46,001 nt of DNA from a virus: the UHGV virus genome UHGV-0199506; one strand, written 5' to 3'. How positions within the stretch are numbered: position 1 is the first letter of the stretch; every line of letters starts with the position of its first letter. Below, one piece after another: positions 3,001-28,478 of the stretch. The notes below the pieces were generated by a model. That model worked only from the letters and a program-made list of their open reading frames with translations. It ran no database searches and was not told the origin of the DNA. The position numbers and the translations under genes were made by a program.

Positions 3001-6000
3001 GCCGGCGCCAATATCCAGTTCGATTCGCAGGTTATCTGGCATTTCAACAGTCAGACGACCGAGGGCTGGACCGGCAGCGCCGGCGTACCGGGTGTGTCCC
3101 GGGATGGCTGGTTACGCCCTGCGGACAGCGCCACCGATCCGTACATTACCTCTCCCGGCGGTCTGGCTGTCGATGGTGCAGCGTACCGCTTCATCATGCT
3201 GCGCTTTCGTAAAACCGGCAAACCAGTCTGGGCGGGTGAGATCCGTTGGGTGTCTGCCGGCGAAAACTTTAATAACACGAAGCGATACATTGTTGCTGAG
3301 CCGGAATATGCCGATGGGGTGGCAACCCTGACGGTGCGTGATATTCCGTGGACAGGGAACATTGATCGTATTCGCCTGGACCTGACGAACCAGCAGGATG
3401 CCAGCAACTTTATCGAATTCGACTGGATCGCCGTTGGCCGGCCAGCACCCGGCGCCAGTACGGCGGCTCTGCAGGATGTGCGCAGTACGCTGAGTAACGC
3501 GCTGACCTCCGAAGCACAGGCACGCAGCACGCTGGCGGCGCAGATGCGTGGCTCCTATGATGGCAGCGATCTGGAGAAAGTCACCTCCGGGCTGCTATAC
3601 CAGGAAAAAACGGCGCGCGTTACCGCCATCCAGGCGGAAGTTAAGGCCAGAGAGTCCCTTCAGACGCAGTTTAACGACAACAAAGCTGCTGTTTCTGGTG
3701 AACTGAGTTCTCTGACGACAGAGCAGCGCGCGCAGGCGAGCCGTATCGGTGGTCTGGAAACCAGCCTCGGGAAAAAAGCCGATGCGACCGCGCTGACGTC
3801 CCTGACGCAGAAAGTTGAGCAACAGGGCGCCACGCTGACATCGCAGGGCGCCGCGTTAACATCACTCACTAACCGGGTGGGCCAGACGGAAACGGGCCTG
3901 GCTGGTACGCATGAGGCGCTGAGCGGGCTGCAGTCTGTTGTTACCCGTCAGGGCGACAGGATAACCAGCCAGGGTCAGTCCATCACAAAACTGACGAGCG
4001 ATTTGGGCACGACAAATTCCGCGCTGGTGAAGAAAGCCGAAGCGGCTGCGGTCACTGCCTTAACGCAGCAGGTGGAGCAAAACGGGCGGGATATTCGCAG
4101 CAATACTGACAGTATCACCCGCCTGTCGAATCAGCTGGTCAATGGCCAGCCGAATAGCTGGTCCCGTCGGATCTATCCTGTGCAGCTGGCTAACGCCGTG
4201 ACAGTCCCGTCATTCAGCGATATTCGCGCCGTGGCGCCAGTGGTCGTGGATGAGGTGGCCGACGCGACCAGACTGGACTTTACGTCCGCTGGGAGCTATC
4301 TGATCGCGCTGTATTCCTGCCAGGTGAAAGTGGCGGCCGATACCACCATCACAATGACGCCCGGTAACAGGGTTTTTGATGATACCGGTGCTGTATTTGT
4401 AAATGGCGTTCAGGTTGCCTGGGGAAACGCCAGCTGGACTACCGTCAGTTTTGATCTGAAAGCCGGCTGGAACACAGTTGAGTTTCTGGTGAATCAGTGG
4501 GCTGGCCAGGCGTATATCAACCTGGGACTGAAGCTGTCAGACAAGGTTGCTGAGATGTACTCCGGTCTCGGTGTTTCCGCGCTGGCAAACGCAGCCGGCG
4601 TACTCAGCTCGAATGTCAGCCAGATTGGCAACGATGTGGTCAGCAATTCGCAGAGCATCACCCAGCTCCGGAATGCGCTGACGCAGACAGACGCGAATGT
4701 GGCCAGCAAAGCGGATCAGACGGCGATGAACTCCCTAACCGGACGAGTGGAGAAGACGGAGTCCGGTCTGACGGCGGCGAACAGCAACATTACGTCGCTC
4801 AGCAGCTCTCTGAGCCAGCAATCCAAACGCGGCGCTAATCTGCTTCCTGATGGCACTTTTGAAAGTTACGCGGTTGGTCACAATCTGGCGAATAACCGTG
4901 CCATCGTGACCACTGACGACTCGCATGGCGGCAATAAATGCATTCGTGTGACGCGTCCGAATGACTACAATGCCAATGCAACTGACAACACTGACACCCA
5001 CATTTTCAGCGGATTCCAGGTTCGCGATAACGCAGTCTTCTATATGGAATGCTGGGTTAAGCTGGATTCCAGGAGTACCGCTATGGCCGGGAACGTGCAG
5101 ATTTCCGTCGGCTTATCGCTCCAGTATCAGGACAACTCCTGGCAGTGGCCGGCAGTTACCAAAGCGGCAAAGGATCTCTCTTCAACTCAATGGACGAAGG
5201 TTTCTGGTTACCTGAAATCAACGAAGAGCGGTATTAAGCAGGCAATGGTCAGGATTTCTATTCCTAACGTTAGCAGCGTTAAGGCGGGTAACTCATTCCT
5301 CATTGATGACCTGGTCATTACCGAAGTGACTGATGCCTACAATGCGCAAAGTACAGCAGATGCTAACGCTAATGCGATTTCGACACTGAACTCGACCGTA
5401 TCCCAACAGAGCGGCCAGATCACCAGTCAGGGTAACAGCATCACTAAACTGATAAATGACCTGGCGACGACTAATAATAACGTCAGCAATAAAGCAGACG
5501 CTAATGCTCTGACGGCACTGACCAACCGTGTTACCCAGACCGAAAAAGACATTAACTCAACGAGTTCTTCTGTCACGAATCTGAACAACAAGGTTGATGC
5601 AATTTCTGTCGGGGGTACAAACCTGATCAAGAACTCCGGCGATATGACCGGCTGGTCGAACGTTGTCAGCGATACGTATCGTGGTAACGCGGTAATTAGC
5701 GCAACTGTAAAAGCCGGCGCCGGTTACAGGGATTTGCGGGAAATCACGCTTGAGTCGCCGGTCGATGCAGGGGAGTACGTTTACAGCTTCTATGCGAAAG
5801 GCGGCGTTGCTGGCCAGACGATGACGGCGTTCTTCTACAATCCGAACACCACAACGTCTATCGAGACCAGCCAGGGTGCGAAAGGTAACAACACTGATGG
5901 TCGTGCGCAGTTCACGCTGACCACTTCATGGGCCCGTTATTGGGTTAAGTGGAAACAGACACCTACCACGGGCACGAAGCGCCTGATTCTGTGCCGTATC

Positions 6001-8862: not shown

Positions 8863-8866
8863 CAGA

Positions 8867-8892
8867 GGCCCCGCCAGGGGCCTTTTCTTTTT
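8867..8892 (+). terminator. Rho-independent terminator after J (GGCCCC-GCCA-GGGGCC + TTTTCTTTTT)
   Basis: Hairpin plus T-run 5 nt after the J stop codon. Confidence 0.7.
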
Positions 8893-8923
8893 CCAGGGAA
8901 AACCATCCAGGAGCAACTTTATT

Positions 8924-10420
8924 ATGGCGATGTATGAAGTCGGCACCGTCACGGGTGCAGCGTCGCAAGCACGGGTGACAGGTGCGACAACAAAATGGTC
9001 ACAGGTGGCGCTGGGGATACTGCCCGGGTCGATTCTGGTGGTCTACCGCAGCGGTAGTGCTGACCTGTATGCGATCAAATCTGTGGACAGCGACACGCAA
9101 CTGACGCTGACCCGGAATATCACCACCGCATTTTCCGGTGCCTCTTACGGCATTATTACAGCTGAAACCGCCAGCACCTCGTCGTTTGCTAACCAGCTGG
9201 CCAGCGCGTTTGCATTCTGGCGTAGTGTAGTGGAGGGCTGGTCGATGGCCCTGACCGGCAGCGGCAATATTACCCTGACTGACCCGATCACAGGAAAGCA
9301 GGTGACCGTGCCGGCGATAGCCGGGATGGCGAAAGCATCGGATCTTAACGCGCTGGCAAAACTCACCGGAGGAAACAACCTCGCCGGCTCGCAAATTATA
9401 ACTAGCGATAATTCCGGTTTTATTTTGGGCAGGAACTCAGATCTGGCTCTGCTTAAAAAACAAGGGCAAGGCGGGACAATTGCCGTCGGCTCGGGAACAC
9501 CGTTCAGGGTTCAGCGTTCAAGAGCGACCACTGTATCACCGTCAGAAACCTATGATGACATCCTCGTTATTGGCACCAATAACCAGACGACGTTGCCCGG
9601 AGATTTGGTTGTCGGTGGTGGTTTCGATAATACGGCAAAGGGCAAGCTGTATTCCCAGGCGTTAGAGCTGTCGATGGGCACTCCGTACATCGATTTTCAC
9701 CATAACAAAAGTGCTAACGACTACACCGCACGCCTCATCACCACCTCTGCAGACCAGCTGAGTGTGCAGGGAAGCCATCTACGGGTAGACAGAGACCTGC
9801 GGGTGGGGCAAGCGGCCGACATCGGCAGTTGGATACAGTGTCGCTATGACTGTGTGTCGCAGCGGAGCGACTTCGGTTCCCCTGCCATTGGCTCGTTAGT
9901 TTCCGGGGGCAGAGTTCGGTCCCGCATATCAGGGCGCGGAGGAAACGGGGACACATCAGGAGCGTGGGGGGGATTCTACCTTGAGGAGTACGTAGGCACT
10001 GAGCACCGGATCGTTCTGTACATGGATGGGTTCGGCAGGACGGACGCGTGGACCTTCCGCTCTGGCGGTGCCGTCTCCACCCCGAAGGGGGATGTCATGA
10101 CCACCGGCTCAGACGTGCGGCTGAAAGAGGATTTTACGGAATCCCAGGAAGGGGCCTCCAGGCGTATTAACGCGCTGGGGATATGTGAGTTCAACATGAA
10201 AGGCGAAACACGCCGTAGGCGTGGATTTATTGCTCAACAAGCTGAAAAAGTTGACCCGATTTACACCTTTCAAAGCGGCGATGTAGAAATTGATGGCGAG
10301 AAGATCAATATCCTTAACGTAGACCATACGGCCATCATCGCGGATCTTGTTCTTACGGTGCAGGAGTTAACAAAACAAGTGCGTGATTTGAACAAGCAGG
10401 TTCAAACAAAAGAGTACTGA
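8924..10420 (+). CDS. Tail fibre protein with C-terminal intramolecular chaperone auto-processing domain (peptidase S74-like)
   Basis: Start at MAMYEVG, with AGGAG 12 nt upstream. The ORF-track start at 8735 overlaps the J 3' end and has no RBS. The C-terminus '...DVRLKEDFTESQEGASRRINALGICEFNMKGE...IDGEKINILNVDHTAIIADLVLTVQEL' is the characteristic endosialidase-chaperone (S74) tail-fibre/tailspike self-cleaving domain. Confidence 0.8.
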   Translation: MAMYEVGTVTGAASQARVTGATTKWSQVALGILPGSILVVYRSGSADLYAIKSVDSDTQLTLTRNITTAFSGASYGIITAETASTSSFANQLASAFAFWRSVVEGWSMALTGSGNITLTDPITGKQVTVPAIAGMAKASDLNALAKLTGGNNLAGSQIITSDNSGFILGRNSDLALLKKQGQGGTIAVGSGTPFRVQRSRATTVSPSETYDDILVIGTNNQTTLPGDLVVGGGFDNTAKGKLYSQALELSMGTPYIDFHHNKSANDYTARLITTSADQLSVQGSHLRVDRDLRVGQAADIGSWIQCRYDCVSQRSDFGSPAIGSLVSGGRVRSRISGRGGNGDTSGAWGGFYLEEYVGTEHRIVLYMDGFGRTDAWTFRSGGAVSTPKGDVMTTGSDVRLKEDFTESQEGASRRINALGICEFNMKGETRRRRGFIAQQAEKVDPIYTFQSGDVEIDGEKINILNVDHTAIIADLVLTVQELTKQVRDLNKQVQTKEY

Positions 10421-10844: not shown

Positions 10845-11972
10845 TCATAAGGCCACCGTTGTCCACCCCTTCCCACGATCATCATGGTACCTATCCGTTT
10901 GTTGTTGAGTTTTATGTCCAAGTAAATCTTTCGTGTTTATACCCTGGGCTTTATATAACCGCTCGGAAAGCGATCTTTGTTCATGGAAAGTTGCCGGTGT
11001 ACCTTGTCCCCAGTCAATATCTGCACTGTCTCTTGCCTTGCTGAAATTCATGGTCAGTGTTCTGGGTTTCACCTGTGCTCCTCGCTCAGCCTGTGAGGTG
11101 GTTCTAAAGAAATGAACCAAATAAGGGCTTACTGCATAATCCCGGCAACGACTGATTACATCTCGGAGGCTCCAGTTGATTGCGTTGCAACGCAGAGCTA
11201 ATGGTATAGCGATTTTGCTTCCGGTTTTCTCTTGCTCAACGTGTAGATGATCGTCCCAGATGTCCGAGAATTTCATACGGGATATATCACCTAGTCGCTG
11301 TCCTGTTACTATGGCTAAAAGCATGGCGTTCCCCATGTATTTGTGATTTTCATCGGCTATATCAAAAATCTTTTGCCATTCCTCAAGAGTGAGGCGCTGG
11401 CGAGTGATCTTTCTACGAGGTTGTTTAGTTGCTAGTGCAGGGTTATAACCAGGAGGTACTTCTCCCGCATGCTGAGCTTCTTTAAAAACATCTATTAGGA
11501 CAGAGCGAATGACCTGAGCCATTCTGGGTTGTCCCTCCGCTAAATATTCATCAAGAATTTGCGCAACATCTCGAACATTGACAGCGGATATTAATTTCAT
11601 TCCTACCCGTTCCTTAAGCAGAGATACTGGTTTTGCTTTTTGTTTGATAGTGTTTTCTTTAATATCTCCGGACTTCAATCTTTCCTGCTGAATCTTCCAG
11701 TAACGTTCAAGCCAGGTGTTAGTTGATATTGATTTTCCTGAGCTGGTGGAAATTCTGTCAGTGATTGCCATTATCTGGCGGGTTTGTTGTTCCGCCAGTC
11801 TTTTATTTGCTTCAATAGCTATTGCCGTGGCCTCTGCTTCGTCTGTTCCTAGACTATGAAACTTACCAGTTATCGGGTGCTTATAACGCCAGTATACTTT
11901 ATTAACCTTTCTGCTGAAGAGCGGGTATAAATTTGGAATAGATATATTATTTTTACGTGGTCTGGCAGCCAT
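10845..11972 (-). CDS. int: Tyrosine integrase, lambda Int / e14 IntE family
   Basis: 375 aa. The C-terminal catalytic region ...FHEQRSLSERLYKAQGINTKDLLGHKTQQQTDRYHDDRG... matches the lambda Int R..HxxR..Y signature region. The N-terminal part is an arm-binding-type domain. It sits next to the icd fragment. Confidence 0.9.
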   Translation of the reverse strand: MAARPRKNNISIPNLYPLFSRKVNKVYWRYKHPITGKFHSLGTDEAEATAIAIEANKRLAEQQTRQIMAITDRISTSSGKSISTNTWLERYWKIQQERLKSGDIKENTIKQKAKPVSLLKERVGMKLISAVNVRDVAQILDEYLAEGQPRMAQVIRSVLIDVFKEAQHAGEVPPGYNPALATKQPRRKITRQRLTLEEWQKIFDIADENHKYMGNAMLLAIVTGQRLGDISRMKFSDIWDDHLHVEQEKTGSKIAIPLALRCNAINWSLRDVISRCRDYAVSPYLVHFFRTTSQAERGAQVKPRTLTMNFSKARDSADIDWGQGTPATFHEQRSLSERLYKAQGINTKDLLGHKTQQQTDRYHDDRGKGWTTVAL

Positions 11973-12250: not shown

Positions 12251-14389
12251 TCAGTTTTGCATCAATTTTTGCAGCACCTGATTGCCGGCAATTATTCGCT
12301 GCCAGATCGCTGATACATAGCGGGCCTGATGAATAGCATCAGCGAGGGCATTGTGACGAGACCCTTCAAACGGGATCGTTGTTTTGGGGTCGAAGCTAAT
12401 GGCTTGGCCGAGCTCTACCATTGTTCGTACGTCCCGATCGTTCCAGTATTCCCACGGATAATCTTCAGCAATGCAATCGTAAGAAGAACGCAGAATAGAG
12501 TTGTCGAATGACGCACCGTTACCCCATACCTGCGCCTTTTTGCTCCCACCAGCAACATTATCAGAAACAAATTCTCTGAACTGGAGTAATGCATCCTGCA
12601 ACGGGATAGCATCATCATTTACGATCGCAGAGCGTGCTTCGGAGGACTGTCTAAGCCACCAGATAACAGTAGATGGATCGATTACGGCGCCCCAGTTCAC
12701 GGAGGATTCAAGGCATACGACTTTATAGAAACTTTCTCCAATAGAGCCGGTTGCCGGGTCAAAAACAACCGCACCAATAGCGACGATAGGGGCGTTATGT
12801 TTTTTACCCATGGTTTCCAGATCAACCATAACGTGAACATAATCAATTGGCTGATCTTCCTCCTTATTATGAAGACCGGATTCAATATCTACAGAATCCG
12901 TTTGATGAACAACTTCATCTGTTTTTTCTTTTTGGTTAACCTTGCCCGTAACGTCAACAAGACCTTCAATGGAAAATACTCCGTCCCCAATTTTTGAAAC
13001 TTCAGGCTGCCTGGTCTTGGTAAGGTCTTCGGTTACCCACTTCGGATCCGTAGGGTCGCTAACCCCTTCAACATATTCGCCGCGCTCGGCGGCCAGAACC
13101 TGATTAGCGTCCGGACGTTGCTTTTGAGCCTCTTTTACCAGTTCGGCACCAACTGCTTTAATGTCGGAGGAGAGTGTTTCCAGTTTTGCGCTGCTATCCT
13201 CTCCGGCGATTACTTGGTTTGTTGCATCCAGAGTGACTGCAGCAGATGGAATATGTCCCGCCTTGGTAAGCGTCTCAGCGCTCGGGGTATCATGCTTATG
13301 TTCAGTCAGATTCGCGTTGATGTAGCCACGCAACCGATCTGGAAAAGGAGTTATTCCACTGGATGCTTCCCTGATCAGTGCAAAAATCGCTGCACGGGAA
13401 TAATCAAGGATGCCTGGTGTGCTCCGTAATGCTGCAGACCATTCTTTAAATGGACTTTCTTTCTTCTGTACTATTTCCTTCGCGCGGCGGTGGACTGATG
13501 CCGGAAAATTATAGATGTCAAAATCCATAGGCATCGTTGCAAGAGCGATCTCTATATCCAGAGTATCCAGCGAATGCTGATAATCCGGATTGCGGTCAGT
13601 TTTGTTACCGCCGCCAGCATTGGCGCCGGCATCGGTTTTGTTTATTGAGGTGATATAGTTTCCAGCAGCCCATTCCTTTGTAAGGATCCCGCGGTCAATG
13701 TGCGACGTTTCAAGCCACAATTTGGCGAACTGAATTTGCTTGCCGAGCTCATGGCGTTTCCCCACAGGAAATACGCTCTTAAATGCACTGGTAAATTTCC
13801 ACAGGCCAGGCATATCATATTTTTTAAGCTCCGGAATATTTTCTGCCGTCAGCAGCAGATTCTGCACACCGTGATTATCCGTATCCATTTCCATCGCTGA
13901 AAGGCGGTTACGATGAGGAATGCTAATGTGATACACGTGACGCTCGTCGGCCATATACTGGGCAAGCAGCTGCGTGCGGAATGACATTTCCGCCAGGTTG
14001 AAGAGTGCTTCTTCATTGTTCGAATAGTCCTCTTCATCGCTATTTGCAGGAGAGATATCGTTTTCTGGTTTACTGGAGGGCTGTGGTTCAGCAGCCGCTG
14101 GCGCAACGATTTTTTGCCATGTCAGCCCGTCTTCACCACCAAGCTCGTAGCGATCGCACCAGGTGTCATCCAGTACACCTTCTTCCGGTAAGTCATCAAC
14201 GATGAGCCAGTTGGTGCGGATCGGCAGCTGATGGCTGGCGCCGCGGCCAACGTTAATTTCAGCGTCTTCCAGGATGTCCAGGATTTTGCGCTCGGCGCGA
14301 GAATCGGATTTAGCAGAGAACCAGCAGAAGAGACTTTTCGCTTCGTTTGCTTTTGCCTTCGCTTTAATGAGATACGGGTAGTTGTTCAT
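12251..14389 (-). CDS. RecE (exodeoxyribonuclease VIII)-like N-terminal region fused to a DnaQ-like DEDDh 3'-5' exonuclease domain
   Basis: N-terminal segments (IVDDLPEEGVLDDTWCDRYEL; DRGILTKEWAAGNYITSINKTDAGANAGGGNKTDR) resemble what I recall of the RecE N-terminal region. The C-terminal 190 aa carries Exo I (MVDLETMG), Exo II (WGNGASFDNSIL) and Exo III (HNALADA) motifs of the DEDDh superfamily. Confidence 0.6.
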   Translation of the reverse strand: MNNYPYLIKAKAKANEAKSLFCWFSAKSDSRAERKILDILEDAEINVGRGASHQLPIRTNWLIVDDLPEEGVLDDTWCDRYELGGEDGLTWQKIVAPAAAEPQPSSKPENDISPANSDEEDYSNNEEALFNLAEMSFRTQLLAQYMADERHVYHISIPHRNRLSAMEMDTDNHGVQNLLLTAENIPELKKYDMPGLWKFTSAFKSVFPVGKRHELGKQIQFAKLWLETSHIDRGILTKEWAAGNYITSINKTDAGANAGGGNKTDRNPDYQHSLDTLDIEIALATMPMDFDIYNFPASVHRRAKEIVQKKESPFKEWSAALRSTPGILDYSRAAIFALIREASSGITPFPDRLRGYINANLTEHKHDTPSAETLTKAGHIPSAAVTLDATNQVIAGEDSSAKLETLSSDIKAVGAELVKEAQKQRPDANQVLAAERGEYVEGVSDPTDPKWVTEDLTKTRQPEVSKIGDGVFSIEGLVDVTGKVNQKEKTDEVVHQTDSVDIESGLHNKEEDQPIDYVHVMVDLETMGKKHNAPIVAIGAVVFDPATGSIGESFYKVVCLESSVNWGAVIDPSTVIWWLRQSSEARSAIVNDDAIPLQDALLQFREFVSDNVAGGSKKAQVWGNGASFDNSILRSSYDCIAEDYPWEYWNDRDVRTMVELGQAISFDPKTTIPFEGSRHNALADAIHQARYVSAIWQRIIAGNQVLQKLMQN

Positions 14390-14530: not shown

Positions 14531-14902
14531 TTATGGGGCTGGCGAATCGCCCCGCAGCAGCTGTGATACGCGAACGTCGTCAAGCGCTCGCAGGATAGGC
14601 TCAAAAGTTTTATGGGCTGGCAGTTTAGATACCGCAGTGATCACTTCTGTAACGGTGATGTCATCGCCGCGGGGGCTATAACCACCACCTGGGCCACGCT
14701 GTGAAATTACCAGGTTACCCGCCCGCAGCTTTTTGAAGATCTGCTCAAGGTATGAAGTAGACAGCTTTGACTCTTTACTGATGGCCGTCAGTGAAACGGG
14801 CGAGCCGTCATAGAGCTTATTCAAAGTGGCGGCGGCCTGGACAGATGCCAGAACGCGTTTCATTCCAAATTCCATAATCACTTCTCCGGCCGTAACGGCC
14901 AT
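14531..14902 (-). CDS. Rrf2-family transcriptional regulator (winged HTH), cysteine-free
   Basis: 'SLTAISKESKLSTSYLEQIFKKLRAGNLVISQRGPGGGY' matches the IscR/NsrR/CymR family HTH and the GPGGGY wing. The protein has no Cys, so it has no Fe-S ligands. The likely start is at MEFGMKRV (14875), which has a GGAGAAG RBS. The first ATG lies inside a repeated motif. Confidence 0.7.
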   Translation of the reverse strand: MAVTAGEVIMEFGMKRVLASVQAAATLNKLYDGSPVSLTAISKESKLSTSYLEQIFKKLRAGNLVISQRGPGGGYSPRGDDITVTEVITAVSKLPAHKTFEPILRALDDVRVSQLLRGDSPAP

Positions 14903-15817: not shown

Positions 15818-16037
15818 AAAGTAAATTTTCCCTATCTTGGATATATCTATTCTCATAGTGATGTCCTATCTCATGCCTGTAACGCCGGCCGGCGGAACGT
15901 TATAACCTGCTGCGATTGATATTGCTGTCATCTCATCCGGTGTTTCGTATGCCGCCGGCAGCTACTTCGTGGGCTTCCTGCCTCGATGACTCATTGCATT
16001 TCGTGTTTATAGTAAAACCCATTTTGTGTTTGATTGT

Positions 16038-16054
16038 CAACACGGTGTGTGTTG
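16038..16054. promoter_or_regulatory. Operator-like inverted repeat CAACACGGTGTGTGTTG, distal copy beyond the repressor terminator
   Basis: Near-palindrome (CAACAC..GTGTTG) read directly. It is related to the site at 16597-16615. Confidence 0.4.
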
Positions 16055-16093
16055 AAAGTTGGGGTGGGGGTTTGTGATGAGTTCAAAGTGAGG

Positions 16094-16158: not shown

Positions 16159-16539
16159 TTATTCGTCTGCTTTTTTAAAACGGCCTCTCAGATATTTCTC
16201 GACATACTCATCGATTTCTTTAAGTCGTAGTTGAAAGGTATCAATCATCCGCTCTTGTTCAGACTCTGGAAGCTGGTCAAAAAGTGAAATCAATTTTCTG
16301 TGCTTAGGAGTGAGCCAAGACTCAGCGTTATCCTCACCAAAAATGAGCTCTGACGGGCTGATGCCTAAGGCTTTCGAGATGGTTATAGCATCATCAACGC
16401 CTATGTTCCGACGCCCAGCCTCATAATTTCCGATACGTGACTGTACCCACCCGCATAATTCCGCGAGTTTGGCTTGAGACATGCCTTTCTTCTCGCGTGT
16501 CTCTTTCAGTCTGGAAGCAATAGTCATGTTTATGTTCAT
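16159..16539 (-). CDS. Prophage immunity repressor, XRE-family HTH without a peptidase (S24) domain
   Basis: 126 aa. HTH 'MSQAKLAELCGWVQSRIGNYEAGRRNIGVDDAITISKALGISPSEL'. It is transcribed divergently from a Cro-like gene across a 105-bp operator region. The C-terminal half has no Ala-Gly/Ser-Lys LexA-type cleavage motifs. Confidence 0.8.
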   Translation of the reverse strand: MNINMTIASRLKETREKKGMSQAKLAELCGWVQSRIGNYEAGRRNIGVDDAITISKALGISPSELIFGEDNAESWLTPKHRKLISLFDQLPESEQERMIDTFQLRLKEIDEYVEKYLRGRFKKADE

Positions 16540-16596
16540 CAGATATTTTTACCACGCTACGTGTTATTCATCAAAGTACGTTTCGTCTTGACTCCT

Positions 16597-16615
16597 AAAC
16601 ACGATGTGTGTTTAA
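16597..16615. promoter_or_regulatory. Operator-like inverted repeat AAACACGATGTGTGTTTAA in the repressor/cro intergenic region, overlapping a TTGACT -35 element at 16587-16592
   Basis: Palindromic half-sites AAACAC/GTGTTT. The site lies between the divergent repressor and cro starts. Confidence 0.5.
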
Positions 16616-22635: not shown

Positions 22636-23301
22636 TTAGGCATGCTTTTTTTTACCAACAACCACATATGAACTGCCCGCTTTGCTCCATGAGCTTAATA
22701 CTGATAAATTGTTATCCAAGCAAATTTTACTCACGACATCCACATCCAATAAACCATAGTAAGATGCGTTGCGAGAGTTTTGGTATATATATCCATGTAA
22801 ATGCTTAATACCCCTCTCATACTTCTTAAAATATGAGCTTTTAAATTGATTGACAATCATTGCCTCTCCATCATCCTTTAATAAATCTCTAATTCCGCTG
22901 ATAATTTTGTCAATTGTAGATTTACATGGAATGGCGGAAAGCACGTTTGCGCAAAGTATAAAATCATAACGACTAGTTATTTTATGCATGTTTTCAAAGG
23001 GAACTACATTAGCTTTTCTATAGTTATTAGCTACATATTGTGGAATTGTGGTTTGTACACCTCTTATAATTTGTACTCTTTCTAGCTGCTTTCTGGAATC
23101 TAAAAAGGTCACAGTTTCAAATTTATCGACCAATTGTTCAGAATATCTAAGTTTCCCACATCCAAAATCAAGGGCGCTGCCATTTTTTAGAGAGTGTTTG
23201 ATATGATCGCAGAGATAGTTAGATGGCATAGTATGAGGTTTGGCTGCATTTTCTGAACGTATTGTTATTCCATTCACTTCGTAGTTCAAAGTTAACTCCA
23301 T
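22636..23301 (-). CDS. Class I SAM-dependent methyltransferase (221 aa), not a DNA-methyltransferase type
   Basis: Motif I 'ALDFGCGKLRY' (hh(D/E)hGxGxG) and a Rossmann-fold pattern. No DPPY/NPPY/SPPY motif IV, so it is probably not a DNA MTase. 31% GC. Confidence 0.6.
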   Translation of the reverse strand: MELTLNYEVNGITIRSENAAKPHTMPSNYLCDHIKHSLKNGSALDFGCGKLRYSEQLVDKFETVTFLDSRKQLERVQIIRGVQTTIPQYVANNYRKANVVPFENMHKITSRYDFILCANVLSAIPCKSTIDKIISGIRDLLKDDGEAMIVNQFKSSYFKKYERGIKHLHGYIYQNSRNASYYGLLDVDVVSKICLDNNLSVLSSWSKAGSSYVVVGKKKHA

Positions 23302-24024
23302 TTAAGAAATATTGTTTTTATTAAAAAATTCTATTATTTTATCATCAGGTATTTGTCTTACTTGGCTTTCGGTTCTTGGCTTAACAGATGCTATAAAAAT
23401 AAGAAAATTGAAGACGACGAGAAAAATAACCCACAACCAAACATTATTTAAAGAGCCTGTAACAGAGAATAGATTAGTTAATTTAGCAAAGCTTATTACT
23501 ACAACAGTAATAAATGCAATCACCGTATGCTCAAAGAAAACCCAGAAATAATAAACTTTGTTCCAAAAAAGTTCAACGTAATGTTTATCTTTTAACTCTT
23601 TAACTTCTGGGTAATACAATTTACTCATTACCTTGTAAGATTCATCACTAGATAATTTCCTCGTAACGTTCGCGATTTTTGCCAATGGCTGAACAATTAA
23701 ATAATTATCCCATGCTTTTCTTATGCCAACTACTTTTGCTACATTGTTATGCAGATCTAAAGCCCCGCTAACAATGGACCAAAAAATTGAAAATGCAATT
23801 GGTAAAACTCCGAATGTTAATATCCACTTAATAAACTCTTCGTAGTCTTTAATGGGTGGGATGTATTTGGCATTAATGCCAACCAATGGCATGTAGCCAA
23901 AAATAACTAATGATAGATAAAATAGAAATGTAGTAATAAAAGTTGCCTTATGAAGCATCGGCAACATTTCATTGTAACTTTTTGGTGGTTCTAACATTTT
24001 ACTCTCCATGCATTCCAAAAGCAT
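23302..24024 (-). CDS. Polytopic membrane protein (240 aa, ~5-6 predicted TM helices), immediately upstream of and contiguous with the methyltransferase gene
   Basis: Long hydrophobic stretches (FITTFLFYLSLVIFGYMPLVG; ILTFGVLPIAFSIFWSIVSGAL; VIAFITVVVISFAKL; VWLWVIFLVVFNFLIFIAS). Its stop abuts the MTase start, forming an operon. 30% GC. Confidence 0.55.
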   Translation of the reverse strand: MLLECMESKMLEPPKSYNEMLPMLHKATFITTFLFYLSLVIFGYMPLVGINAKYIPPIKDYEEFIKWILTFGVLPIAFSIFWSIVSGALDLHNNVAKVVGIRKAWDNYLIVQPLAKIANVTRKLSSDESYKVMSKLYYPEVKELKDKHYVELFWNKVYYFWVFFEHTVIAFITVVVISFAKLTNLFSVTGSLNNVWLWVIFLVVFNFLIFIASVKPRTESQVRQIPDDKIIEFFNKNNIS

Positions 24025-24245
24025 TCATTATCAATAATCACATGGCTCAACTAACGCATTTAAAGCTTAATTACCGCTAGTTTCTTAATTGAACACTGCG
24101 ATTTTATCTACATTTTTTTGATTGTTCTAGTTCTCAAAATGACCTAATGAGCTGATATCTATTCTAATCGCACCCACGCTAGCATCTGTAATACATTAAG
24201 CAACCAAATTCCATCATCAGTACCGATGTAAAAATCAGCCTCGAT

Positions 24246-24310
24246 GTCCGCTTCTCGCTCGAAGCAGACCTTCATCCCATTAAGATTGTCCGCTCTGTGC
24301 CAAGAGCGGA
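24246..24310 (+). repeat. Two-hairpin repeat element, copy C (GTCCGCTTCTCGCTCGAAGCAGAC ... GTCCGCTCT-GTGCCA-AGAGCGGA)
   Basis: Hairpin 1 is 22/24 identical to copy A. Hairpin 2 has a perfect 8-bp stem with a GTGCCA loop, homologous to the A-copy hairpin 2. Confidence 0.6.
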
Positions 24311-24483
24311 ATCTGGAGCGCCAGAGGTAGCAACGTTTCTTATCAACGGTGTTGATCACCACAAAAATGACTGTATCCCTGTGATAGCGGATTTCGTCCT
24401 TTGTGGAGAAAAGATCAATCTAAACATGAGCATGGGTTAGCGAAAAGTGGCATTAAGAACTTGAACATTTTACCTAACAGGTA

Positions 24484-24503
24484 TACTGTTTATTTATACA
24501 GTA
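24484..24503. promoter_or_regulatory. LexA (SOS) box TACTGTTTATTTATACAGTA, 20 nt upstream of the dinI-like gene
   Basis: Perfect CTGT-N8-ACAG palindrome matching the E. coli LexA consensus TACTGTATATATATACAGTA at 16/20. Confidence 0.8.
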
Positions 24504-24522
24504 CTTGAGTGAGGAGCTAGTT

Positions 24523-24756
24523 ATGAAAGTGGAAATCACAATTGATCGCCAAAAAAAATTGCCGGATGGCGCTGTGCCTGCTCTGGAGAAGGAGCTACTG
24601 CGGCGATTGGATCAAAACTTTAATAACTGCAGTCTTGTGATTCGTCGGGCCAGCTCCGATGGGTTGACCGTGCTTGGTGGAATGGACGGAGATAAAAAAC
24701 GTATTGAGGAAATCCTGCAAGACACTTGGGAAAGCGCTGATGACTGGTTCTGTTAA
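24523..24756 (+). CDS. dinI: DinI-family protein (77 aa)
   Basis: MKVEITIDRQKKLPDGAVPALEKELLRRL...DKKRIEEILQDTWESADDWFC compares with E. coli DinI MRIEVTIAKTSPLPAGAIDALAGELSRRI...DKQRISEILQETWESADDWF. It has a GAGGAG RBS. The ORF-track start at 24505 is a short extension. Confidence 0.85.
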   Translation: MKVEITIDRQKKLPDGAVPALEKELLRRLDQNFNNCSLVIRRASSDGLTVLGGMDGDKKRIEEILQDTWESADDWFC

Positions 24757-24818
24757 GTTGAGGTCCAGTGGCTTGCCTGGTTTATTTTGAGGATTTTGCT
24801 GTGAGTAAAAAACAAGAA

Positions 24819-25058
24819 ATGCCGAACACCGGCTATGCAATCATCAGATGCGACGATGGGGTGATCGTTGCTCGTCTGACATCCTTTCCTGTGTGTGAGC
24901 GCGCTCTGATGTACCGGCGCGGCGACACTGTTTCGTTTATGCCTTTGCAGCCGGATGAGATAGTGGGGACTCTCTCTCTTTTTTCACAGATGATTGAAAA
25001 GGCTAAGTCTGGAGTTGGTTACCAGGTTCCCCCTGATTCTGTTACAATCCCGTCATAG
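24819..25058 (+). CDS. Hypothetical small protein (79 aa) downstream of dinI; candidate antirepressor
   Basis: MPNTGYAIIRCDDGVIVARL... No recognisable family. It sits in the LexA-box operon. The antirepressor role is an inference. Confidence 0.35.
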   Translation: MPNTGYAIIRCDDGVIVARLTSFPVCERALMYRRGDTVSFMPLQPDEIVGTLSLFSQMIEKAKSGVGYQVPPDSVTIPS

Positions 25059-25098
25059 GCCTGAACAACCTATACCTGCTGCGTCGCGGAGAGAAGCC

Positions 25099-25491
25099 AT
25101 GACGCAAACCCCCGAAGTATCAAAATCCCATCAGACTGGTGCTCCTTCATCGAGCGCCGGTTTGCTTTCGTCTTCAAAACTAACTTTTCGACAGCAGGAA
25201 GTTTTCGATCTGCTGGTGGCCTACATCAATCAGCATGGCTACCCACCTACGCTAACTGAGCTAGCCGATATGCTCGGTGTTAGCTCGTCTAATGCTGTCC
25301 TGTTGCATCTGCGTGCGTTAGAGAGAAAAAATTTTATAAAACTCTCTCGCCGCGTCTCCAGAGGAATTTCCATCGTCGGGCGAAAGGAGCCTATGCTCGC
25401 CGTGCTGCTGCTGCAGGAAATGATCGCTGAAGAACCCGGCGCGCGTGAAAGAGCGATTGAGTTTTTGCGACTGTTCGGTGATCAGCCATGA
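25099..25491 (+). CDS. LexA-like winged-HTH DNA-binding protein lacking the S24 autocleavage domain (131 aa)
   Basis: '[66 protein letters not shown]' compares with LexA '[66 protein letters not shown]'. It has an S/P-rich N-terminal tail and a GGAGAG RBS. Confidence 0.65.
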   Translation: [130 protein letters not shown]

Positions 25492-25691
25492 AGAAAAGTT
25501 GGTTTTTACACGAGCAACTTTCAGAGGCTGAGGCTACAGAGCTGGTGGAGCGATACCGTAAAAATAACTGTGTGGTTGAGAAAAGCTTGTCCAGAGACTT
25601 TACATCGTGGGAGATCCGCGTGCTGTTGCCGGAATCGAAGAAGCCGCCACGGATTGACAGGACCTACATACAGAAGATGTGGAGGGACTGA
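25488..25691 (+). CDS. Hypothetical protein (67 aa), translationally coupled at both ends (ATGA / TGATG)
   Basis: Overlapping start/stop codons with both neighbours, read directly. Confidence 0.4.
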   Translation: MKKSWFLHEQLSEAEATELVERYRKNNCVVEKSLSRDFTSWEIRVLLPESKKPPRIDRTYIQKMWRD

Positions 25692-26749
25692 TGCGAGCTT
25701 TGCTTAACGTCGATATTGCACGCCATCTTGGAATTGTGCTGCTTAAGCCGGGTAGTGAATTAATGCCGTTATTCGGTGCCGGCCGGGTTCTTGTTGAAAT
25801 GCCGCCGGCAAGCATGAAAAAGATACCCAGTGGACGTCTTCCTGATGCCCGGCAGCCGTTGGCAGAGGATCCCACCCTTCATGTGTTCTTTTCCGATGAG
25901 CGCGTGATCCAGGCTGCTGGTGGGTTATCAGCGCTTGAGCGTTGGCTTAATTACCGGCATAAGGCATGCCAGTATCCTCACTCCGAATACCACCACGCTG
26001 AGTTGGTAACCATGCGGTACCCGCCCGGTGCGCTTCTGGTGTGCTGGTACTGCGACAATAATTTGCGTGAACAGACTACAGCGGAACTCCAGGATCTGGC
26101 GCTGAAAAACGTCATCGACTGGGTTATTGATACTGTACTGATCGCCCTTGGCTACAACAAAGAACGTTCTCTTTCTCTCGCTGAGCTGTGTTGGTGGGCT
26201 GTGCAGTCTGGTATTGCCGACACCATTACGGAGACCATGGCGCAGCGCGCTCTGCGTATGCCGGAGGAGCCATTTTTATCAGTTTATAAAGAAAGCGACA
26301 TTATTCCGATGCCAGCGGCCACCAGCGTTCTGCAGGAGAAAGTGAAACCTGCAGGAGTTGCGACGAAGCGCAGGAATAACGAATTCCTGCAGACCGAGCA
26401 GCAGGCGGAGATTCTGGCATTAAAGGTGGATCCTGAATCACCAGAGTCGTTCATGCTGCGACCGAAGCGGCGCCGTTGGACCTGTGAGCAGTACACTCGT
26501 TGGGTTAAAACGCAACCCTGCGAGGGCTGCCGCCGCCCGGCAGACGACCCGCACCATATCATCGGGCATGGTATGGGCGGTACAGCAACAAAAGCACATG
26601 ACCTCTTCGTGATCCCACTGTGCAGAGTGTGCCACGAAGAATTACATACCGATCTTGCGGCATTCGAGAAGAAATACGGCACGCAGTTAGAACTGTTTGC
26701 GCGTTTCCTGGATCGGGTGCTGGCGATCGGCGCAATTATAAAAGCATAG
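25691..26749 (+). CDS. DUF968-family protein with a C-terminal HNH-like zinc-finger nuclease motif
   Basis: C-terminal 'CEGCRRPADDPHHIIGHGMGGTATKAHDLFVIPLCRVCHEELH' (CxxC...HH...CxxCH) is typical of lambdoid nin-region DUF968 proteins. Start at MRALLNVD, with a GGAGGGA RBS. Confidence 0.7.
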   Translation: MRALLNVDIARHLGIVLLKPGSELMPLFGAGRVLVEMPPASMKKIPSGRLPDARQPLAEDPTLHVFFSDERVIQAAGGLSALERWLNYRHKACQYPHSEYHHAELVTMRYPPGALLVCWYCDNNLREQTTAELQDLALKNVIDWVIDTVLIALGYNKERSLSLAELCWWAVQSGIADTITETMAQRALRMPEEPFLSVYKESDIIPMPAATSVLQEKVKPAGVATKRRNNEFLQTEQQAEILALKVDPESPESFMLRPKRRRWTCEQYTRWVKTQPCEGCRRPADDPHHIIGHGMGGTATKAHDLFVIPLCRVCHEELHTDLAAFEKKYGTQLELFARFLDRVLAIGAIIKA

Positions 26750-26769
26750 TGTATGGAGCATTGAGCAGT

Positions 26770-27468
26770 ATGAACCTACAAAATCTGGAATATACCCGTA
26801 TTGAAGTGCGTCGAGCGTTGTTGGATTTATCCGGTGCAACAAAGGGACAACTCGAGGCATTTAGCGAGAATCCACCAGCAGACAAAAATAAAAATCCACG
26901 GTGCTCTCGCCATCTTGTCGATCTGGATGGGGGAATCGGTTGTGGCCCGTCGGTGGTTAAGGCACTGACTACTCCAGTTTATGTGATTGAGACCCGTAGC
27001 CGCCGTCGACCAATGCCGCCCATCAATGATATTGAATTCGGTTATTCGCCGTGGCGGCGCGCTGTAAACCTGCTGGAAGAACATCACCAGGCATGGGTGC
27101 GCTATTGCTATGGCTTCGATCTAAATTTCCGTTACCAGACGTTGATGTGCGAACACGTCTGGACTGAATACCAGAGCTATCAAGTGGGCAGGGCGATCCA
27201 ATCGAGAGTAATAAAAAAGCTTGTGGGACTGGTCTGGTTGGCTGGTCAGGAGGTTGCAGCGACCCGGAATAATGAAACGTATAAAGCCTACGCTGGCGCA
27301 GCTCTGGCACGTATGGTTTCAGTTGACCGCTCAACCTGGAAAAGGGTTTATGCCGGGCACTGGGAACGGCTTAAAAGGGCATTCGTTGAGATGGATAGCA
27401 ATGCATTGCAAATCATCTACAGATATCATGAGCAAATAGAAGACACCAAAACGGAAAAATGTGACTAA
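26770..27468 (+). CDS. Late antiterminator Q-like protein (approx. 232 aa from MNLQNLEY)
   Basis: Sits immediately upstream of a PR'/tR'-like region and the lysis cassette. Cys-rich segment NPRCSRHLVDLDGGIGCGPS. The ORF-track start at 26620 overlaps the DUF968 gene, so an internal start was chosen. The family call is positional plus weak motif evidence. Confidence 0.5.
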   Translation: MNLQNLEYTRIEVRRALLDLSGATKGQLEAFSENPPADKNKNPRCSRHLVDLDGGIGCGPSVVKALTTPVYVIETRSRRRPMPPINDIEFGYSPWRRAVNLLEEHHQAWVRYCYGFDLNFRYQTLMCEHVWTEYQSYQVGRAIQSRVIKKLVGLVWLAGQEVAATRNNETYKAYAGAALARMVSVDRSTWKRVYAGHWERLKRAFVEMDSNALQIIYRYHEQIEDTKTEKCD

Positions 27469-27556
27469 ATTTGGCTATCTTCTACAATTGAGCTTGCAAA
27501 ATGCAACAAAATGAGCGATATTTAAAGCTAATTTGATATGCTGCCAAAAACTTATG

Positions 27557-27580
27557 AACCCGCCATTGAGCGGGTTTTTG
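27557..27580 (+). terminator. tR'-like terminator (ACCCGC-CATTGA-GCGGGT + TTTT) in the late leader downstream of Q
   Basis: Hairpin plus T-run read directly. An AT-rich putative PR' region at 27500-27545 lies upstream. Confidence 0.65.
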
Positions 27581-27626
27581 CGTTACAATTCACCTGTTTA
27601 AATAAATTCTTTCGGACAGGTGACGC

Positions 27627-28478
27627 ATGAAAACAGATAGCCCAGAAAATCCATTTGAACGCAATGATTTTTCGATGGATGACTTCCACCACTACCTGAG
27701 GGAGTTTGATAAAGCGGTATGTGAAGCGAATGCTGTAAGTCAGGGGGTTGGAGTGCGAATGGCTGAAGCTTATAAAGGGTGGTCGACTTATATTTTTTCA
27801 CGAATTTGTATTCATGCATCAATAATGATTTCTAACGTACCCAAATCTAGGTGGGCGAAGAGGGATTATGATTTTTGGGATTTTTCTTCTATTGCAACCC
27901 ATGTAAGAGCGATTATCGAAGCTGAGTTGTTGTTTATGTATTTAGCTGAGAATCCAGATTCAACTGATGAGTGGTCAGCAAAGTTGAATGTTATGCACAT
28001 GAATGATTGTGCAAAGAGAATTGAGTTATTTACATCCAGTGGTAATACAAAAGCGTTGAGATTTTATAATGAACAACAAGAAATAATTACTGAGAGGCTT
28101 AGTAATAACCCATTTTTTATGACTCTTGATCAAGGAACCAGAAAGCGATGCTTGGCTGGAAAAGCCCTTACGATCCCTAATCGAGATGAGTTACTGATTA
28201 AACAGGGGAAAGATCCAAAGCAATTTAAGATTATGTTTGATTTTTTATCTCATTATACGCATATACTTCCTATGTCATATTATAAAATGGAGCCAAACGG
28301 GAGAGGTACCGGTTGTTTTAATAACTATGATTTTGGTTATATGATTATGGGTGTTTTTATTTGTACTGAATCTTTGACTCAATGCACAAATAGATTGGTA
28401 GAGCTTTTTCCTGATGTTAAAAGATTGAGAAAAGGAACTAAATCAAAATTTACGTTAGGGCCTAAACCTACAAAATAA
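27627..28478 (+). CDS. Hypothetical protein (283 aa), low-GC moron between tR' and the holin gene
   Basis: ~37% GC against ~55% for flanking late genes. It sits at the classical late-operon cargo position (where stx/bor-type morons reside). No recognisable family. Confidence 0.5.
   Translation: MKTDSPENPFERNDFSMDDFHHYLREFDKAVCEANAVSQGVGVRMAEAYKGWSTYIFSRICIHASIMISNVPKSRWAKRDYDFWDFSSIATHVRAIIEAELLFMYLAENPDSTDEWSAKLNVMHMNDCAKRIELFTSSGNTKALRFYNEQQEIITERLSNNPFFMTLDQGTRKRCLAGKALTIPNRDELLIKQGKDPKQFKIMFDFLSHYTHILPMSYYKMEPNGRGTGCFNNYDFGYMIMGVFICTESLTQCTNRLVELFPDVKRLRKGTKSKFTLGPKPTK

Follow-up and report, generated by a model that had tools for sequence, protein, structure and literature searches.

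Results

Organization of a dinI-led operon in a lambdoid phage genome

The virus genome UHGV-0199506 was analyzed over its whole length of 46,001 nucleotides (nt), hereafter called the window, with a focus on the segment 24484-25691. In this segment an SOS (LexA) box precedes four small genes, which encode a DinI homologue, a predicted antirepressor, a LexA paralogue truncated after its DNA-binding domain (DBD) and a protein of 67 amino acids (aa). The window resembles the complete genome of a lambdoid Klebsiella phage, and its closest records are the Klebsiella phages Kp4865-4 and ST846-OXA48phi9.1, with 95–97% identity across the region. The elements of the operon, together with the prophage repressor, are listed below with the methods that support their assignment.

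24461-24487, plus strand: promoter of the SOS operon (−35 hexamer TTGAAC, 24461-24466; −10 hexamer TATACT, 24482-24487)
24484-24503, unstranded: SOS (LexA) box TACTGTTTATTTATACAGTA, overlapping the −10 hexamer and ending 19 nt before the dinI ATG
24523-24756, plus strand: dinI homologue, 77 aa, first gene of the operon (Pfam DinI 1.3e-25; phrog_189)
24801-25058, plus strand: open reading frame 2 (ORF2), predicted antirepressor of the GfoA/GfhA family, 85 aa, GTG start (BLASTP against GfoA)
25081-25105, plus strand: RNA hairpin around the Shine-Dalgarno sequence and AUG of the third gene, nine pairs, nearly invariant
25099-25491, plus strand: truncated LexA paralogue, 130 aa (Pfam LexA_DNA_bind, NCBIfam, AlphaFold2, Foldseek)
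25132-25164, tail to 25175, plus strand: 13-bp GC-rich hairpin with a U-rich tract, CUUUCGUCUUC, over codons 12–22 of the LexA-like ORF
25488-25691, plus strand: 67-aa protein (phrog_1212; Gifsy-2 homologue STM1021.1n)
16159-16539, minus strand: prophage repressor of the DicA/GfoR type, 126 aa (Pfam, NCBIfam, BLASTP)

The sequence TACTGTTTATTTATACAGTA agrees with TACTG(TA)5CAGTA at 18 of 20 positions. The exact core CTGT-N8-ACAG occurs once in the 46-kb window, at 24484-24503, and the longer exact form TACTGT-N8-ACAGTA is likewise found once, while shuffled sequences gave a chance expectation of 0.75 sites with two mismatches or fewer. A previous interpretation made from the letters of the DNA (the sequence-only reading) had placed a consensus SOS box 20 nt before a DinI homologue; the box was recovered as a unique element, and the distance is 19 nt. 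As read from the sequence, the promoter that it overlaps has a 15-nt spacer with TATACT, or a 17-nt spacer if TACTGT is taken as an alternative −10 hexamer. A simple promoter scan did not pick the site at 24461-24487. This promoter/operator region aligns base for base with the dinI promoter of Gifsy-2, from the −35 hexamer (TTGAAC in the window, TTGAAT in Gifsy-2) through TATACT, the box and the Shine-Dalgarno sequence to the ATG. The Gifsy-2 dinI promoter is LexA-controlled, and replacing its promoter/operator element abolished mitomycin induction (Lemire et al. 2011, PMC3121763). Gifsy dinI genes show a 4.5- to 23-fold SOS induction with a box-to-ATG distance of 19 bp (PMC8072944). Gene context was surveyed in 80 IMG/VR loci and in individually fetched contigs, and in most of the related loci among the 80 the box lies at −613 from the LexA-DBD gene. 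In Gifsy a terminator sits upstream of the promoter; in the window none was found directly upstream of it, and a minus-strand two-gene cassette takes this place.

The product of the first gene is a DinI homologue, as had been proposed: it scored 89.9 bits against Pfam DinI (cutoff 24.2 bits) and its C-terminus, DTWESADDWF, corresponds to the acidic C-terminal helix expected of the family. Its score against the NCBIfam DinI equivalog (91 bits) falls under the 111-bit cutoff, and it is therefore a phage DinI-like paralogue. Gaps of 44 nt and 40 nt separate dinI from ORF2 and ORF2 from the LexA-DBD gene, respectively. The two other of the four junctions overlap, through an ATGA at 25488-25491 between the LexA-DBD and 67-aa genes and by 1 nt at 25691 between the 67-aa gene and the DUF968 gene, leaving the 67-aa gene translationally coupled on both sides. 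The suggestion that every gene is coupled to the next thus holds for the LexA-DBD/67-aa pair and not for the two gapped junctions. The 67-aa ORF was present as announced and belongs to phrog_1212; no relative of it was found in the PDB by sequence. An operon end at 25691 could not be maintained, as the transcription unit continues into DUF968 and Q, and a terminator scan revealed nothing convincing ahead of DUF968 (25691-26749) and Q (26770-27468).

Gifsy-2, SPN3UB and mEp237 have their genes in the same order as the window, dinI, antirepressor, third gene (irsA in these phages), 66/67-aa gene, nuclease and Q. At the DNA level, the operon is essentially absent from E. coli complete genomes.

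ORF2 is related to GfoA and the repressor to GfoR

ORF2 aligned with GfoA over its full length (37% identity, E 3e-12, BLASTP). The GfoA sequence used was obtained from viral contigs that contain the published cloning primer of gfoA, which led to an 82-aa, TTG-started protein in 58 contigs. ORF2 falls into phrog_1813 with a weaker match to phrog_340, and the GfoA-like gp49 of mEp237 matches both families. Because a GAGGA motif lies 7 nt upstream of GTG 24801 and residues encoded before the internal ATG are conserved in the homologues (K4 and P8 being nearly invariant), ORF2 most likely starts at this GTG and is 85 aa long. Gifsy antirepressors start with GUG or UUG (PMC3121763). What had been described as a 79-aa unknown protein after dinI is a GfoA homologue, most likely of this greater length. 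A relationship with GftA was ruled out, as no similarity was detected by BLASTP or hhalign, and sequence searches returned no PDB relative of ORF2.

The absence of an autocleavage domain from the repressor at 16159 was confirmed, the protein matching Pfam HTH_3 only, with no Peptidase_S24 and with a short helical C-terminal part. It is 33% identical to GfoR over the whole length, including this C-terminal part (E 2e-20), and 25% identical to the Gifsy-2 repressor (E 4e-8), with which it has a C-terminal LxxLFxQLPExE motif in common (BLASTP). The NCBIfam DicA model matched at 3.5e-14, below the family cutoff. By homology, we assigned ORF2 as the predicted antirepressor and the 126-aa repressor as its predicted target. 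The sequence-only reading had recognized an antirepressor operon, which stands, and had not named the small protein concerned; the GfoA homology designates ORF2 and, for the same reason, the LexA-like protein was discarded as the antirepressor of the relay.

Repeated motifs of the TTTCGTGTTT/AAACACG type were noticed on either side of the repressor gene, at 15999-16056 and 16581-16615. They are likely to be the left and right operators (OL and OR) of a GfoR-type repressor.

A LexA paralogue ending after the DNA-binding domain

The third gene encodes a LexA-DBD protein without an S24 domain, in agreement with the sequence-only reading: the match to Pfam LexA_DNA_bind (PF01726; 1.9e-20) is confined to residues 26–89 and no S24 match was obtained. 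The AlphaFold2 model (predicted local distance difference test score, pLDDT, of 78 for the whole protein and about 90 where it is folded) consists of a disordered segment (residues 1–24), a winged helix-turn-helix (30–92) and a two-helix C-terminal hairpin (96–126). Foldseek superimposed it on the E. coli LexA DBD (3jso, 1jhh, 1lea) with a root-mean-square deviation of 0.6–1.8 Å and 51–52% identity, and BLASTP gave 44% identity with Salmonella LexA over 94 residues. The NCBIfam lexA equivalog scored 67.5 bits, against a cutoff of 110.95 bits.

The protein ends 41 residues past the DBD. It has no Ala-Gly cleavage site, and Ser119 and Lys156 of the S24 domain are absent. Profile homology to LexA chains of the PDB stops at LexA residue 74, short of the Ala84-Gly85 site; a weak BLASTP extension reaches residue 95, in the linker/cleavage-site region. 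A C-terminal tail mimicking the LexA cleavage loop was considered and rejected for this protein, since the profile stops at residue 74, the tail is predicted to be helical and the equivalent of Gly85 is a Glu. G85D LexA is a non-cleavable mutant (PDB 1jhf title).

With a charge of +4 and an isoelectric point (pI) of 10.1, the DBD is basic like that of LexA. According to a secondary source, the DNA-contacting residues of LexA are S39, N41, A42, E44 and E45 (PMC3091678). The first three are kept as S63, N65 and A66, and E44/E45 are replaced by two leucines, L68 and L69. Three equivalents, those of S39, N41 and the wing residue R64, are invariant across 58 family members and that of G65 is nearly so, while recognition-helix positions 43–45 are hypervariable (AAE, AAD, AND, VLL, VAL, VTL, ALT and others). 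The C-terminal hairpin is predicted with confidence and is conserved in the family. Our reading is that DNA binding has been kept with a changed specificity and that the hairpin is a putative dimerization element which replaces the S24 domain.

An inverted-repeat scan of 23900-27700 returned only a palindrome inside Q. The type of Q differs among loci carrying the truncated LexA gene, which argues against a target of the protein in Q or PR'.

The third-gene slot and its RNA hairpins

The slot occupied by irsA in the Gifsy operons (200 aa, STM1020, phrog_319) contains no irsA in the window, where the LexA-like gene replaces it exactly; the LexA-like gene is not itself irsA, IrsA being the unrelated 200-aa STM1020 product. 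Gifsy prophages remained inducible as before when irsA or dinI was deleted (PMC3121763). As irsA is dispensable for induction, the third-gene slot is a variable site and not a functional requirement. In Citrobacter phage Chris1, only about 130 nt lie between the homologues of ORF2 and of the 67-aa gene, too little for a cassette.

The 25-nt hairpin (25081-25105 in the window, 11750-11776 in L007) is common to the irsA start of Gifsy-2, SPN3UB and mEp237. One of its pairs is U-A in the window, C-G in most loci and U.G in L070, and is thus compensated in the window. The same design precedes irsA and the LexA-like gene, and both products begin with Met-Ala/Thr. This hairpin marks the exact mosaic junction, and it is possibly a translational control element.

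The second hairpin, at 25132-25164, has a folding free energy of −20.4 kcal/mol (z-score −4.65) and was flagged by the terminator scan. A hairpin is present at the equivalent position in 8 of 9 other long-form lineages (the long form, to which the window protein belongs, is described below), although the inner stem differs there in sequence and in the amino acids that it encodes. The outer stem was 79% paired, against 24–47% in slid controls, and its covariation score was reached by 2 of 500 shuffles. Since position and shape are kept and sequence is not, it appears to be the nucleic acid that is constrained. Within the N-terminal extension, AGL(S/L)S is the only peptide motif that is conserved; it coincides with the 3' arm and the U-rich tract, and appears to be their by-product. 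We consider this element a moderately supported candidate for a leaky terminator or attenuator that would limit transcripts from the SOS promoter to dinI and the antirepressor gene, bearing in mind that the U tracts are imperfect and that the element is weak in L069.

Two forms of the truncated LexA family

The truncated-LexA family is small: about 20 clusters (at 50% identity) match both DBD and hairpin, among 29,252 LexA-DBD hits. Its members are named only 'LexA family protein' or 'DNA-binding protein', and 'transcriptional repressor' in PHROGs; a literature search found no paper on this enterobacterial family.

More than 50 loci, from several lineages down to 50% identity, carry the long form (about 130 aa, extended at its N-terminus), and in all of them a GfoA-like gene lies upstream of it. 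Most of these loci have an exact SOS-box core at the operon start. Their first gene encodes DinI in most cases, a phage RecA homologue in others (e.g. L066), or is missing (e.g. L069). The 67-aa gene follows every long-form gene except at L150, and DUF968 follows in all long-form loci.

The short form (about 106 aa; SfV orf42, Stx2 phages, mEp460, cdtI) was found with no SOS box nearby and no antirepressor. Short-form genes nearly always come directly after a gene for a DNA methyltransferase or a 3'-phosphoadenosine-5'-phosphosulfate (PAPS)-reductase-like protein, and usually before rusA and DUF968 (L002 2342-3704, L073-L076, L130-L156).

The phage RecA homologue, of 361 aa, replaces DinI in some Raoultella and other enterobacterial prophages (L066 1540-2684; L071, L126-L129, L150). 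At L066, a terminator and two tandem SOS boxes lie ahead of recA, and the antirepressor, truncated LexA and 67-aa genes come after it as in the window. In many proteins from metagenomes, two LexA-DBD-like stretches stand in tandem or a LexA DBD is joined to other domains (e.g. P0242, P0244, P0248, P0251). LexA DBDs without an S24 domain seem to be common beyond the truncated-LexA family.

Genome layout and neighboring genes

A 2938-aa ORF and a 561-aa ORF with an endosialidase-chaperone (Peptidase_S74) domain, interpreted as tail-fibre genes, occupy 46-10420. Because they directly precede the integrase gene, the window appears to be an entire phage genome in circular permutation and not a chromosomal slice. 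The other features of the genome are as follows.

10845-11972, minus strand: integrase
12251-14389, minus strand: ExoVIII-like gene
after the repressor gene: cro-like and cII/YdaT-like genes
ending at about 18906: replication genes, next to a stretch of small genes
22636-24024, minus strand: two-gene insert directly upstream of the SOS promoter
25691-26749, plus strand: DUF968/HNH-like protein, 352 aa (Pfam DUF968 1.2e-72; phrog_96)
26770-27468, plus strand: late-gene antiterminator Q (Pfam Phage_antiter_Q 2.6e-34), the start being inferred as the first in-frame ATG after the DUF968 stop
downstream of Q: lysis and structural genes

The 712-aa early-left product of 12251-14389 combines an N-terminal ExoVIII-like part with an Rv2179c-like 3'-5' exoribonuclease domain (Pfam 4e-70), and an Rrf2-family winged-helix regulator is encoded in the early-left operon at 14531-14902 (minus strand). 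The insert at 22636-24024 encodes a 221-aa S-adenosylmethionine (SAM)-methyltransferase-like protein, with a weak PADLOC match to mad2, and a 240-aa protein without family match which, judging from its sequence, looks membrane-embedded. This insert looks like a moron or possibly a defence cassette. PADLOC returned no match for the operon proteins, and scans with Rfam and for tRNA genes gave no hits.

The 3' end of Q contains an imperfect 30-bp palindrome, AGATGGATAGCAATGCATTGCAAATCATCT, at 27389-27418; some 45 nt downstream of it is a promoter-like site (27461-27488). An ORF with a weak Pfam match to DUF5677 (27627-28478) separates Q from the holin gene; lambdoid phages often put cargo such as toxins at this place.

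Discussion

A proposed Klebsiella-phage version of the Gifsy relay

We propose, with a probability of roughly 75%, that this region is the Klebsiella-phage version of the Gifsy-type SOS relay, in which ORF2 would be the antirepressor and the LexA-like gene an accessory regulator with a re-tuned specificity. In the lysogen, host LexA bound to the box at 24484-24503 would block the promoter of the dinI-led operon. Upon DNA damage, removal of LexA would allow transcription of the operon, and the 85-aa GfoA-family protein would then bind the non-cleavable DicA/GfoR-type repressor and pull it off its operators, such that the prophage would be induced without repressor cleavage. The LexA-like gene would not be part of this relay. 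It is viewed as a cassette in the irsA slot, presumably built from a host-derived LexA DBD with a hairpin in place of the S24 domain. Its product would be a dimeric, cleavage-proof DNA-binding regulator, whose base-reading positions would have been re-tuned towards a site other than the canonical SOS box, and which, by analogy with gp6 of GIL01 (see below), would be made after SOS and in lytic growth.

This scheme follows what has been established for Gifsy prophages. Their repressors are not cleaved. A dinI-antirepressor-irsA operon is under the control of a LexA box that lies beside the dinI homologue, 1.3 kb downstream of the replication genes, and the antirepressor suffices to induce the prophage, through its binding to the repressor (PMC3121763). 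That Klebsiella prophages conserve the dinI-irsA region was already remarked by Lemire, Figueroa-Bossi and Bossi 2011 (PMC3121763). The closest counterparts of the window are the dinI-gfoA/gfhA-irsA operons of Gifsy-1 and Gifsy-3 with their repressors GfoR and GfhR. In both cases a promoter-overlapping box lies 19 nt before dinI, the product of the second gene is a small antirepressor from one family (37% identity) whose start codon is not AUG, the repressor is DicA-like and S24-less (33% identity), and the operon stands between the replication genes and Q with the 66/67-aa gene following. They differ in that the window carries a truncated LexA paralogue and not irsA, DUF968 in place of NinG, and an additional hairpin with a U-rich tract at the start of the third gene. 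GftA of Gifsy-2 and FsoA of Fels-1 resemble ORF2 in operon position (Gifsy-2) and in the proposed displacement of a DicA-type repressor, but they belong to PHROG 4847 and have no sequence relationship to ORF2 by BLASTP or profile comparison.

Compared by description, 186 Tum, N15 AntC and the P22-like LexA-controlled Ant are also LexA-repressed antirepressors that inactivate non-cleavable repressors. The match with Tum put forward in the sequence-only reading is valid as an analogy and not as an architecture: in Tum, an antirepressor N-terminal half is fused to a DinI-like C-terminal half (PMC3121763), whereas the window has separate genes with dinI first. Its broader claim, an architecture of Gifsy-type antirepressor-mediated induction, is supported by the homology of the promoter with its SOS box, of the GfoA-type ORF2 and of the GfoR-type repressor. 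The relay is therefore known biology with a new member, and the main interpretation of that first reading stands.

For the LexA-like protein, the most informative precedents are host LexA and gp6 of GIL01. Relative to LexA of E. coli, Salmonella and Klebsiella, the winged helix-turn-helix is 51–52% identical and superimposes at about 1 Å, S39, N41, A42, R64 and G65 are kept, and the domain is similarly basic; in contrast, the S24 domain and Ala84-Gly85 are absent, E44/E45 are Leu-Leu, a helical hairpin stands in the place of the dimerization domain, and there is a 25-residue disordered N-terminal extension. GIL01, a tectivirus of Bacillus thuringiensis, encodes a 66-aa truncated LexA homologue, gp6, expressed from the LexA-repressed promoter P1; gp6 has evolved a DNA specificity of its own, recognizing a distinct palindrome, and is an activator of the late promoter P3 at GaCACAnnTGTGaC (Fornelos et al. 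2018, PMC6182141). In both phages a DBD-only LexA homologue is placed behind a LexA-repressed promoter, as judged in the window from gene order and the SOS box, its expression being predicted from these. However, gp6 is shorter and lacks the C-terminal hairpin and the N-terminal extension. Lambdoid late genes are controlled by Q, unlike the gp6-activated P3. No BLASTP alignment was obtained between the two proteins, which align only through the common LexA fold, and they would thus represent independent captures, of Bacillus and of enterobacterial LexA. With gp6 as a precedent, a re-tuned regulator is the most economical reading of the window protein.

Several points weigh against the relay and the accessory regulator as proposed. 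LexA binding, the contact between antirepressor and repressor, and the dependence of induction on the operon are predicted from homology at 33–37% identity. The AlphaFold2 model of ORF2 is unreliable (pLDDT 49) and gives no structural support for an interaction with the repressor. Concerning the LexA-like protein, Leu-Leu at E44/E45 is unusual on a DNA-reading surface and could mean a loss of specific binding or a protein-binding role. No candidate operator was found either, as the searches gave no second SOS-like palindrome and no variant-half-site palindrome (xTGT-N4-12-ACAx') in a regulatory position. Finally, the short-form genes have no SOS box in their context, and this different context implies that the core function of the family is not tied to SOS control.

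Alternative roles of the operon and of the LexA-like protein

An incidental SOS box, with genes belonging to a delayed-early (nin) transcript from PR and an induction independent of the operon, appears very improbable. By chance, a sequence of 46 kb would contain the core CTGT-N8-ACAG about 0.7 times (an estimate from 46001/4^8), and the genes do lie in the nin region, where they would also be transcribed from PR after antitermination. However, the full 20-mer is unique and overlaps a promoter homologous to a validated one, and a box is retained at this position throughout dozens of diverged loci, also where recA stands in for dinI or dinI is missing. In addition, a repressor without a self-cleavage domain needs another SOS input.

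The remaining alternatives bear on the LexA-like protein. It could act, as the sequence-only reading had suggested, as an uncleavable mimic of LexA on canonical SOS boxes. Produced upon LexA cleavage, it would re-repress its own promoter in a negative-feedback pulse, as well as SOS genes of the host and the antirepressors that competing prophages keep under LexA control. Its derivation from enterobacterial LexA (44% identity over 94 residues with that of Salmonella, 51–52% in the DBD), the conservation of S39, N41, A42 and the wing Arg-Gly, and the acidic residue retained at position 45 in many family members would all suit such a role. The SOS-box promoter is, moreover, the only non-coding element common to the long-form loci examined, and lexA itself is autoregulated via SOS boxes. 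Yet two of the five listed contact residues, E44 and E45, are Leu-Leu in the window protein and its close Klebsiella relatives, and positions 43–45 vary by lineage even though all the boxes must fit host LexA. The dimerization module is unrelated to the S24 domain that sets the 16-bp half-site spacing of LexA, and short-form relatives occur in phages without an SOS box nearby. Owing to the Leu-Leu substitution, to a dimerization module whose spacing need not be 16 bp and to the position in the irsA slot, the evidence leans against a canonical SOS-box target for the window protein, and we regard this role as unlikely. Less likely still is an action on protein and not on DNA, by which the product would use its winged-helix surface and tail to bind, for example, RecA filaments, host LexA or the phage repressor and serve as a second SOS modulator beside DinI. 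The constant linkage to genes acting on RecA or SOS (mostly dinI, elsewhere the gene for a phage RecA homologue), the hydrophobic Leu-Leu on the exposed face of helix 3, the weak BLASTP extension into the LexA linker and the L-V-A-G-E of the short forms, which resembles the V-A-A-G-E of LexA, are compatible with it. Against this, the profile search ends at LexA residue 74, before the cleavage site, the Gly85 equivalent is a Glu (as compared with the non-cleavable G85D), the tail is predicted as helical and not as a cleavage loop, and the invariance of S39 and N41 with a DBD of pI 10.1 fits selection for DNA binding.

A more elaborate conjecture, which we would sooner doubt than believe, can be put forward. 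The long-form truncated LexA may be an unrecognized third component of Gifsy-type SOS operons, a cleavage-proof, hairpin-dimerized LexA derivative with a reading head that has diversified between phage lineages. It might re-repress chosen LexA-type operators, in a feedback on its own operon or on the antirepressors of rival prophages, or it might activate a later phage promoter as gp6 does. Its synthesis from the SOS promoter would be gated by the candidate attenuator in its 5' coding region, such that only antiterminated, i.e. committed, transcription would produce it.

Significance

As far as we found, there is no earlier description of a truncated LexA occupying the irsA slot, of its strict association with GfoA-type antirepressor operons or of the hairpin embedded in its gene. 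The relay extends a known Salmonella mechanism to Klebsiella phages and helps to predict which Klebsiella prophages are induced by SOS-triggering antibiotics, as well as cross-induction via trans-acting antirepressors. Enterobacteriaceae phages have repeatedly kept a host-derived, uncleavable LexA DBD, the long form being found exclusively in LexA-controlled operons beside DinI or a phage RecA. If SOS-type operators are the target of the truncated LexA, it would give the phage a means to reshape or end the host SOS response, or to compete with other prophages. If it acts like gp6 of GIL01, it would represent a second, independent recruitment of LexA as a phage developmental regulator.

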